NCBI GenBank assembly: GCA_963739595.1
Contig: CAVUBA010000031.1
Coordinates: forward strand, 7,375-71,374
Direction of reading: 5' to 3'
Source: an uncultured Thermoleophilia bacterium
Lineage (GTDB): Bacteria; Actinomycetota; Thermoleophilia; UBA2241
Length of the DNA: 64,000 nt
Of this stretch, positions 56,575-57,958 are shown piece by piece; within the stretch, counting starts at the first letter, position 1; each line of letters starts with the position of its first letter. The position numbers were made by a program, and so were the translations under genes. Under the pieces are notes generated by a model. It had not been told where the DNA came from and ran no database searches. It saw only the letters and a list, made by a program, of their open reading frames with translations.

Positions 56575-57958
56575 ATGGAAGGTATCCCGACGCGTATGGG
56601 CGACGGGTCGCTGGTGCGGATGACCCGGGCGCAGATCGAGGCCGACATCCACGCCGGCAGTCGAGGCGGGCGCCAGGCGGGCCAAGGTCGAGCCGCTGGG
56701 CGACGACGAGATCGCGCACCTCGCCGACATCTTCGCGAGCCGCGCCCGGTTCAGCGCGGTCGACATCGGCGACGAGGTCATCCTCACGTCCGACGGCGTC
56801 GGCAGCCAGGACGCCGGCTCGCGCATCACCGACCTGCAGAACTACGAGCAGACGATCTGCACCGACACGGTCGAGCTGTATCACCACGACTACTCGTTCA
56901 AGCCGATCAAGCCGGTCCTGCCGTTCGAGCAGGAGATCATGCGCCAGACGCAGCTGCTGCTCACCATCCCGGTCGCCTACGGCGCGATGCCGGACCTCGG
57001 GCGCTACACCGTGCCCGACGGCCCGGTCCCCAACTGGTCGCAACTGCTGCCGCTGGGCCGCATCGACGAAGCCCGTGCGGCCCAGGAAGAGGCCGTGGAG
57101 GCCGCGGTCGAGGACATCGTCTACGTCGCCGAAGGCATGTACGAGGCCGGCGCCGACGGCATCAACCTGGACACGGCGGGGGCGGCCGGCGACGCCGACT
57201 TCCTGGCCGCCCTCAAGGCCATCGAGCGCATCCGCGCGAGGCATCCGGACTGGAGCATCCAGATCGGCATGGCGAGCGAGTTCGTGCTCGGCATGCACGG
57301 AGGACTCGAGTACGACGGCGTCCGCCTGGCCGGCCTGTGGCCGGCCGCCCAGATGCGACTGGCGGCCAAGGCCGGCGTCTCCATCTTCGGGCCGGCCATC
57401 AACGTCAACACGGGCAAGACGGTGGCCTGGAACGTGGCGCGCACCTGCACCATCGTCAAACCGTGCACGGACGCCGCCACGATCCCCATCCACCTCAACG
57501 GGGGGATGGGCGTGGGCGGCGTCCCCATGCACGCGCTGCCGCCGGTCGACGCCGTCTCGCGCGCCTCGCGCGCGTGCGTCGACGTCCTGCGGCTCGACGG
57601 CTTGTAGATCGGCGCCGGCGACAACCACAGCCAGGGGATCGGCCATGGTGTCGCGTCGGGGATGGGCGGATTGCGGACCGCCGGAGATCTGGTGGCCCGC
57701 GTGCAGATGACCCGACGGATGCGGCTTCCCGAGGCGAAGGCCTACGTGGCGGACAAGCTGGGCGTGAGCCCGGCCGACCTGAGCGACCCCGTGACGATGT
57801 CGGACGTCCGCCGCGAGCGCGGACTCGGGACGATCCCCACGGAGGACACGGCGACGGTCAACGACGCGCTGGCGATCGAGGCCAAGGTCAACATCGCCCG
57901 CGTGCTCGACGTGCCGGTGCGCTCGGTCGAGCGGTTCCGGGCGCTCACGGGCGGCTGA
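56575..57958 (+). CDS. mtbB: Dimethylamine methyltransferase MtbB homolog, copy 1; in-frame TAG at 57605-57607 at the pyrrolysine position; also one frame disruption near 56659
   Basis: Family-wide motifs: RMGDG, YGAMPDLGRY..PDGP, ADGINLDTAGAAGDAD, GMASEFVLGMHG, GKTVAWNVAR, GMGVGGVP, PPVDAVSRAS. Then LDGL-TAG-IGAGD, followed in the same frame (ORF 57662-57958) by [32 protein letters not shown]. Typed CDS because the TAG is interpreted as recoding. Confidence 0.8.

Follow-up and report, generated by a model that had tools for sequence, protein, structure and literature searches.

The use of pyrrolysine (Pyl, O) is usually tied to methanogens and to a few anaerobic Firmicutes and Deltaproteobacteria. 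Here we analyse a stretch of 64,000 nucleotides (contig CAVUBA010000031.1, assembly GCA_963739595.1; hereafter the window) from an uncultured bacterium of the class Thermoleophilia, which carries two copies of mtbB, the putative gene for dimethylamine:corrinoid protein Co-methyltransferase, each with an amber codon (UAG; TAG in the DNA) at the pyrrolysine position. Among the closest described cases, PylRS genes are listed for two Actinobacteria (Guo et al. 2022, PMC9630628), and Actinobacteriota metagenome-assembled genomes (MAGs) of Stordalen Mire, the genus Bog-752 being named, express copies of mttB and mtbB that encode Pyl; that study recognised these genes because they were cut short at the amber codon (Ellenbogen et al. 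2023, PMC10805028).

A Pyl-encoding mtbB in Actinobacteriota has already been published, from metagenomes, and the present work is confirmation and detail, not discovery. In the light of these two reports (PMC9630628, PMC10805028) an earlier reading of the same DNA (the original prediction), which held such recoding to be unexpected in actinobacteria, was overstated on this point. The window gene is like the Stordalen Actinobacteriota mtbB (PMC10805028) in coming from the same phylum and very probably the same lineage, and in having the same signature of a TAG with truncation; its genome is that of a different species (best MtbB identity 94-95%). Whereas the reports on Stordalen and on the two Actinobacteria (PMC10805028, PMC9630628) are at survey level in the portions cited, the pyl layout, the tRNA-Pyl, the number of paralogues and a hairpin are worked out here; what is added is the breadth of the trait in Thermoleophilia, a pyl locus that is dispersed and yet conserved, the finding that TAG freely serves as a stop codon, and the covariation of the hairpin. 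In a full-text search of the literature, pyrrolysine and Thermoleophilia occurred together in one paper only, which by its title and abstract deals with serpentine-soil geochemistry and microbiology.

Compared with Methanosarcina MtbB, the predicted protein gives a full-length profile match (460 amino acids (aa) versus profiles of 463-466 positions) and has one in-frame UAG, which is placed identically and stands before I-G-x-G-D, and the gene has a conserved hairpin placed as the 3' hairpin of the Rfam PYLIS model. It differs from the Methanosarcina gene in its high-GC actinobacterial host, in the lack of an adjacent mtbC, in the presumed location of the pyl genes elsewhere and in being a frameshifted copy.

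Results

The locus is identified by its sequence as mtbB. On the forward (+) strand, translation of copy 1 is predicted to start at ATG 56575, five nt downstream of a directly readable Shine-Dalgarno-like GGAGG (56565-56569), and the GGAGGGGGCGATGGAAGG stretch around this motif is kept in most of the aligned orthologous loci. Codons 1-28 (MEGIPTRMGDGSLVRMTRAQIEADIHAG, 56575-56658), in the frame of this ATG, match the N-termini of the 343-aa orthologues. They are followed by an extra A at 56659, a 1-nt insertion causing a +1 frameshift, which proved to be private to the window when the stretch of 46.7-58 kb was aligned with seven orthologous loci (GCCGGC[A]GTCGAG in the window versus GCCGGC-GTCGAG in 7/7 loci). 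Codons 29-343 (56660-57604), defined by translation and by the family profiles PF09505 and TIGR02368, lead to the in-frame TAG (codon 344, 57605-57607), and a further 116 codons end with the TGA at 57956-57958 (57608-57958). The frame of ATG 56575 itself meets no TAG and past about residue 28 is Arg/Gly/Pro-rich and without family similarity, and the TAG-bearing frame has a TGA at 56621-56623 and no ATG, GTG or TTG until 56939. A single uninterrupted frame (UAG aside) is therefore not found in copy 1, in which the extra A follows codon 28. With A 56659 removed, the gene reads as ATG 56575, 343 codons, TAG, 116 codons and TGA, and its product has 460 aa.

The profile PF09505 (Dimeth_Pyl; cut-off 25 bits) matches with 518.8 bits (E 1.5e-155) over positions 30-461 of 463, running across the TAG, the frameshifted N-terminus being excluded. 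The repaired protein also exceeds the cut-off of the NCBIfam equivalog TIGR02368 (419.2 versus 369.1 bits), residues 6-456 corresponding to profile positions 7-464 of 466. When the Protein Data Bank (PDB) was searched by sequence with the repaired protein, no MtbB relative with a known structure was found. The original prediction was right about the TAG at 57605-57607 with its LDGL-TAG-IGAGD context, about the frame that stays open to the TGA with the conserved sequence it quoted, about the resemblance of these downstream codons to MtbB C-termini (the Pfam profile continues in them to 461/463) and, once A 56659 is removed, about a length near 460 aa with the TAG near codon 344. It had taken 56575-57958 as one frame; this interval is 1384 nt long, which is not divisible by three, and the extra A shifts the frame after codon 28. 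Since the two parts of the gene lie in different frames, the whole-length match that it claimed is obtained only after a frameshift correction that it did not mention, while the match across the TAG stood.

The position of the TAG was examined with the Rfam model RF02509 (PYLIS_2), which is derived from Methanosarcina and covers 100 nt from the UAG of mtbB. Its consensus UAG-AUa-GGu-gu (Pyl-Ile-Gly-Val) aligns to TAG-ATC-GGC-GC at 57605, the UAG of model positions 1-3 falling on 57605-57607, and hence the TAG occupies the pyrrolysine column. The context in copy 1 is RLDGL-TAG-IGAGDNHSQGIGHG, which at the protein level would read as LDGL-O-IGAGDNHSQGIGHGVASGMGGLR. The match as a whole (57605-57704, + strand) scores 42.4 bits against a gathering score of 36, much of this score being due to the conserved coding sequence.

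Conservation of the TAG was followed in two data sets. A homologue search over 5.8 billion proteins gave 2606 matches, and statements on identity and length refer to the 120 of them that were listed. A scan of one genome per species of the Genome Taxonomy Database (GTDB) gave 464 stretches encoding relatives, and the comparisons use the best 80 of these, together about 1.4 Mb, whose sources are the Microflora Danica long-read project, the Stordalen Mire data and studies of lakes or sediments. The labels of these 80 loci are those of MAGs of Thermoleophilia (most of them), Actinomycetes or Actinomycetota, two being labelled Deltaproteobacteria; the Stordalen MAGs bog_752, palsa_645, palsa_647 and fen_672 are among them, bog_752 being the namesake of the genus Bog-752. 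In all of the 151 full-length matches in the 80 loci (151/151) the TAG stands directly before the C-terminal part, after DG[L/Y/F], and nearly all have about 116-129 codons after it; six further matches are fragments in shifted frames. The TAG is kept across paralogues of only about 50% identity. Of the listed homologues, whose identity ranges between 95% and about 65%, almost all have 342-344 aa, a length implying that gene callers ended them at the TAG, and on the syntenic contigs the mtbB genes are annotated as pairs of 343/344 aa and 98/99 aa.

The codons downstream of the TAG are, judged by their substitution pattern, under purifying selection. When the window copy is compared with eight orthologues, the ratio of non-synonymous to synonymous substitution rates (dN/dS) amounts to 0.11-0.20 in the part before the TAG and to 0.04-0.28 in the part after it; with the nearest orthologue it is 0.14 upstream and 0.04 downstream. 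As these values are alike on both sides of the TAG, neither a stop codon nor a decayed tail can explain them. As to other in-frame TAG codons of the window, the 3' continuations at 47975-48565 (clpB and a 105-aa open reading frame (ORF)) and 32612-33010 (PHP-like and yjbQ-like genes) were rejected as candidates, being ordinary stops between separate genes whose frame is not kept in the syntenic relative L002, and the MgtE_N/CBS gene at 12520-13845, which ends in TAG, was rejected as a truncated gene, its C-terminus reading as a natural end.

The lineage possesses, on the evidence of gene annotation and profile matches, a complete Pyl system. With a Desulfitobacterium hafniense PylSc as the query (99% identical to the database entry), the best 120 matches were all from Firmicutes; the high-GC PylSc proteins were reached through a library of representatives at 50% identity (194 matches) together with a filter on amino-acid composition. 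Four contigs of 68% GC (L082-L085) show the order amidase, pylSc, an oppositely oriented pylSn, a Germane-domain gene, tRNA-Pyl(CUA), pylD, pylC and pylB, set among the housekeeping genes gltX, cysS and leuBCD (L082 8919-15581, both strands being used). All five Pyl proteins of these contigs exceed the NCBIfam equivalog cut-offs, with PylB, PylC and PylD of L082 passing TIGR03910, TIGR03909 and TIGR03911. High-GC pyl loci are also found in L086, L087-L089 and L090-L159. The system is like that of D. hafniense in its split synthetase, with a PylSc about 50% identical and a separate pylSn of about 109 aa, and like those of Firmicutes and Deltaproteobacteria in having pylB, pylC, pylD and a tRNA with a CUA anticodon, here in a high-GC lineage. 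Unlike in Firmicutes and Deltaproteobacteria, the genes do not form one compact pylT-Sc-B-C-D-Sn operon: an amidase gene precedes pylSc, pylSn is found on the opposite strand, the Germane-domain gene intervenes, and the tRNA-Pyl-pylD-pylC-pylB group is on the other strand, a context that is kept across several loci.

The lineage tRNA-Pyl has the sequence GGGGGGTCGATCGGAAGGATCAGCGYGGGCTCTAAACCCACGCAGGCGGGTGTGACTCCCGCACTCCCCGCCA. A 36-nt core of it occurs without mismatch in 70 Joint Genome Institute (JGI) metagenome contigs with a mean GC content of 71%, in 19-51 of which the synteny of pylSn, the Germane-domain gene, pylD, pylC and pylB is seen, and the tRNA variants of these 70 contigs differ by compensatory changes in the acceptor and D stems. 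Used as a blastn query, this tRNA matched in pyl loci only.

Two direct links connect the pyl genes with the TAG-bearing mtbB genes. In L089, a contig of 1.14 Mb, the distance between pylSc and a TAG-split Dimeth_Pyl gene (62% identity to each of the two window mtbB copies) is below 1 kb, and pylSc also abuts an MTTB gene. The Thermoleophilia MAG SO_2017_SWC_28 has pylSc on JBAZPK010000196.1 and a TAG-bearing mtbB (L077) on JBAZPK010000008.1, the latter being 81-82% identical to, and syntenic with, paralogues on contigs that bear 90-91% orthologues of the window gene. Pyl genes (pylSc, pylD and tRNA-Pyl) are present as well in L086 (72.5% GC), long-read soil data from the European Nucleotide Archive (ENA) series shared with the syntenic relatives of the window, and the close PylSc homologues include proteins named 'pyrrolysine--tRNA(Pyl) ligase large subunit' by NCBI in a Thermoleophilia bacterium and an Actinobacteria bacterium.

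About 70 nt 3' of the UAG, copy 1 contains a 7-bp hairpin (CCGCCGG-AGAU-CUGGUGG, 57678-57695, + strand) over the codons T-A-G-D-L-V-A; its counterpart in copy 2 is at 60678-60695. In an alignment (A2) of 123 distinct 105-nt segments starting at the UAG of Thermoleophilia mtbB genes, the stem corresponds to columns 74-80 paired with columns 85-91. Five of the pairs are invariant or nearly so, and two are built from synonymous third-codon positions. The pair of columns 75/90 is CG in 71 segments, GC in 24, UG in 15, UA in 4 and something else in 9, and that of columns 78/87 is CG in 74, UG in 27, GC in 20 and something else in 2. Fifty cells are changed on both sides of the stem; none of 500 shuffles equalled the observed covariation score, and slid controls scored lower. 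All four combinations of the two pairs exist, and CG and GC are both found within single paralogue clades, hence the pair changes arose repeatedly. The position is that of the 3' hairpin of PYLIS_2, and it is for this hairpin only that covariation support was obtained; copy 1 shows non-standard pairs in the model's 5' stem. The PYLIS element has been regarded as non-essential (PMC3639795).

The second copy of mtbB (59563-60962, + strand), delimited by tblastn and three-frame translation, is about 59% identical to copy 1. Its TAG (60605-60607, in the context KIDGY-TAG-VGTGDPLGM) falls in the same column as that of copy 1, and its PYLIS_2 match (60605-60704) is the stronger one, with 68.2 bits. 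Alignment with orthologues revealed two 1-nt insertions private to the window, an A at 60556 and a G at 60833. Copy 2 is followed by ABC transporter genes identified with Pfam (substrate-binding protein and permease, 61232-64000, + strand). The gene order common to the syntenic contigs is clpB, MBL, Zn-ribbon, EAL, GGDEF, surE, HAD, ligA, mtbB1, S11 peptidase, tRNA-Thr, mtbB2 and ABC transporter. Past the transporter the relatives carry genes of the MTTB family, genes for an amino-acid permease and a B12-binding corrinoid protein, an mttB interrupted by a TAG and three more TAG-bearing mtbB genes, and hence mtbB1 and mtbB2 would form the left edge of a methylamine-utilisation island of about 25 kb. 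In the relative L069 the mttB gene (11127-12899, + strand) has its TAG at about positions 334-341 of the Pfam MTTB profile, the known Pyl position, and a corrinoid protein gene comes next; the three TAG-bearing mtbB genes lie near these two, just past the ABC transporter.

The intergenic gap of about 700 nt upstream of mtbB1 gave no Rfam match and, in simple scans, no sigma-70-like promoter or terminator. Between tRNA-Thr and mtbB2 the relatives have a gene of about 475 aa with a SASA domain, which is missing from the window (59173-59563 versus 13446-14873 in L002), and the arrangement of the S11 peptidase gene in the window is unlike the two adjacent genes of the relatives.

Frameshifts are spread over the window. 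Three-frame translation revealed +1 shifts in fhaB (~3670), a glycosyltransferase gene (~26700), hsp20 (~43090) and hspR (~45210), and two in rumA on the - strand (~30450 and ~29900). A +1 frameshift in the HAD hydrolase gene (~53349) is common to the window and to its relative L001, and a private 1-nt deletion at 55632 takes the BRCT domain off ligA. The C-terminal part of the HAD protein is joined in frame to ligA in a 761-aa ORF (53369-55654, + strand), a fusion that two events bring about, the HAD frameshift and, in the intergenic spacer, a 1-nt deletion private to the window at 53610. Nearly all of the window frameshifts consist of one extra base (+1). Between 36500 and 39000 on the - strand, weak multihaem cytochrome c signatures (Cytochrome_C7, paired CXXCH, MtrC/MtrF-like) extend over several frames, and these ORFs are possibly one or more frameshifted large cytochrome genes. 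The host itself is a high-GC actinobacterium of the class Thermoleophilia, the window containing the actinobacterial FhaA/PstP/RodA/PbpA/PknB cluster, and its habitat is soil or sediment.

Discussion

Recoding of codon 344 of mtbB from UAG to pyrrolysine, as originally predicted, is the best-supported reading of these sequences, and it draws on (i) the agreement of the TAG with the Pyl column of the Rfam model; (ii) the invariance of the TAG; (iii) the purifying selection acting on the codons after it; and (iv) the pyl genes of the lineage. We propose that translation would initiate at ATG 56575 and that the UAG of codon 344 would be decoded by a pyrrolysyl-tRNA(CUA). The split PylSc/PylSn synthetase would charge this tRNA with pyrrolysine that PylB, PylC and PylD produce, and all of these would be encoded elsewhere in the genome. 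Decoding would then go on for 116 codons to the TGA and yield an enzyme of 460 residues. By analogy with characterised MtbB, the Pyl side chain would activate dimethylamine and its methyl group would be passed to the Co(I) of a cognate corrinoid protein. This catalytic scheme is established for methanogen enzymes and for bacterial corrinoid methyltransferase systems. Unlike in Methanosarcina, the methyl acceptor cannot be coenzyme M, and in this non-methanogen the methyl group would presumably be transferred on to tetrahydrofolate; the enzymatic activity and the acceptor of this MtbB are both suggested by the analogy.

For the extra A 56659 and for the two extra bases of copy 2, the likeliest explanation is that indel errors were left in a long-read assembly, because like single-base frameshifts occur in fhaB, rumA, hsp20, hspR, ligA and copy 2; we infer that the frameshift of copy 1 is such an artefact. 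The nearest relatives are Nanopore-only assemblies with one round of Medaka polishing (PMC12313526), and in one of them, L001, 11 kb contain 58 indels that are private and shift the frame. A programmed +1 frameshift at 56659 was rejected, the extra base being missing from all seven aligned orthologues. The explanation in its entirety, that is, a Pyl-decoded mtbB with the Pyl genes elsewhere in the genome and with extra bases that are assembly errors, we regard as probable.

Several observations weigh against it. The 64-kb window contains no pylT, pylS or pylBCD, no corrinoid protein gene and no methylcobamide methyltransferase gene; its three tRNAs are all ordinary. Nor were pyl genes, a corrinoid protein or a methylcobamide methyltransferase found in the 80 related loci at a distance of up to 10 kb from mtbB. 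ARAGORN found no tRNA-Pyl in the window or in the 80 mtbB loci, and a Methanosarcina mazei PylRS sequence gave no tblastn match in either. As to the pyl genes, then, the window has none, while pylSc, pylSn, pylB, pylC, pylD and the tRNA(CUA) were found in the lineage; this particular genome presumably has them too. The two mtbB copies bear three frameshifts in 2.8 kb, as against about 10-12 in the remaining ~52 kb of the window that are coding (~0.2 per kb), a mild excess that would also fit recent decay, and all three insertions are outside homopolymers, unlike the classic Nanopore error. Finally, TAG ends about 9 of the ~42 well-supported genes of the window, and if it is that common as a stop, the insertion of pyrrolysine must be regulated or inefficient. 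The genes in question are rodA, pknB, a CBS-domain gene, a GT/PHP ORF, the yjbQ-like and PHP-like genes, dnaK, clpB and surE. TAG is not avoided in this lineage, which owns a UAG-decoding tRNA.

The frameshifts and the missing pyl genes are what would be expected if the family is Pyl-recoded in the lineage while both mtbB copies of the window are recent pseudogenes with real insertions, perhaps after methylamine metabolism or the pyl genes had been lost or fallen out of use. Such a reading would account for three private frameshifting insertions within so little mtbB sequence, none of them in a homopolymer, when in the 46.7-58 kb compared with the seven relatives ligA has the sole other private coding frameshift. 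Like frameshifts, however, affect the conserved fhaB, hsp20, hspR, rumA (two), HAD and ligA genes, where they are not credible as biology, and the sister assemblies from like data are rich in indel errors (PMC12313526). Moreover, the dN/dS values against the nearest orthologue betray no relaxed constraint on either side of the TAG, and the TAG, the stop codon and all the other codons are intact. Decay of both copies is consequently an unlikely, if still serious, alternative to a functional, Pyl-decoded mtbB.

It is far less plausible that the TAG is an ordinary stop, with a truncated protein of 343 residues, maybe a separate C-terminal fragment initiated at ATG 57662, and a downstream similarity that is the relic of a longer gene or one half of a split gene. 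Gene callers do annotate 343 aa plus 98 aa, TAG is frequently a genuine stop in the window, and the window is without pyl genes. Against this, none of the 151 full-length matches has TGA, TAA or a sense codon in place of the TAG, and the segment between the TAG and the first ATG (57608-57661) is conserved like the remainder and lies within the family profiles. The dN/dS after the TAG equals that before it, and the full Pyl system of the lineage is physically linked to a TAG-bearing mtbB in L089. Characterised MtbB has at this very position a pyrrolysine that is thought to be catalytic (reference 54 of PMC10805028).

Read-through of the UAG with a canonical amino acid, by a near-cognate or another suppressor tRNA, would alone account for the conserved downstream frame, and nothing in the window identifies the decoder, but this can practically be dismissed: a canonical residue could be encoded directly and yet no homologue has a sense codon there, the tRNA(CUA) of the lineage adjoins pylD, pylC and pylB with pylSc and pylSn a few kb off on the same contigs, and no other suppressor tRNA was seen in the window or the 80 mtbB loci.

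With pyrrolysine decoding of mtbB as the preferred reading, the locus bears on which organisms of terrestrial habitats consume methylamines, the precursors of methane: high-GC Thermoleophilia, which are common in soil, peat and sediment, would have several copies of Pyl-dependent methyltransferases for di- and trimethylamine along with a complete Pyl system. For annotation it means that standard gene calling cuts each such gene in two. A further question is how a UAG-decoding tRNA is tolerated by a genome in which about one fifth of the genes have TAG as their stop. More tentatively, and with somewhat less confidence than doubt, we suggest that the Thermoleophilia of soils, peat and sediments may constitute a large, vertically inheriting and essentially uncharacterised clade of Pyl users, with several Pyl-encoding mtbB and mttB genes per genome, with pyl genes that lie in a conserved neighbourhood of housekeeping genes instead of a mobile operon, with TAG free to act as a stop, and with a compensated hairpin placed as in Methanosarcina mtbB. 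If this is true, the hairpin would suggest a recoding-related or translation-pausing element that is conserved across domains.

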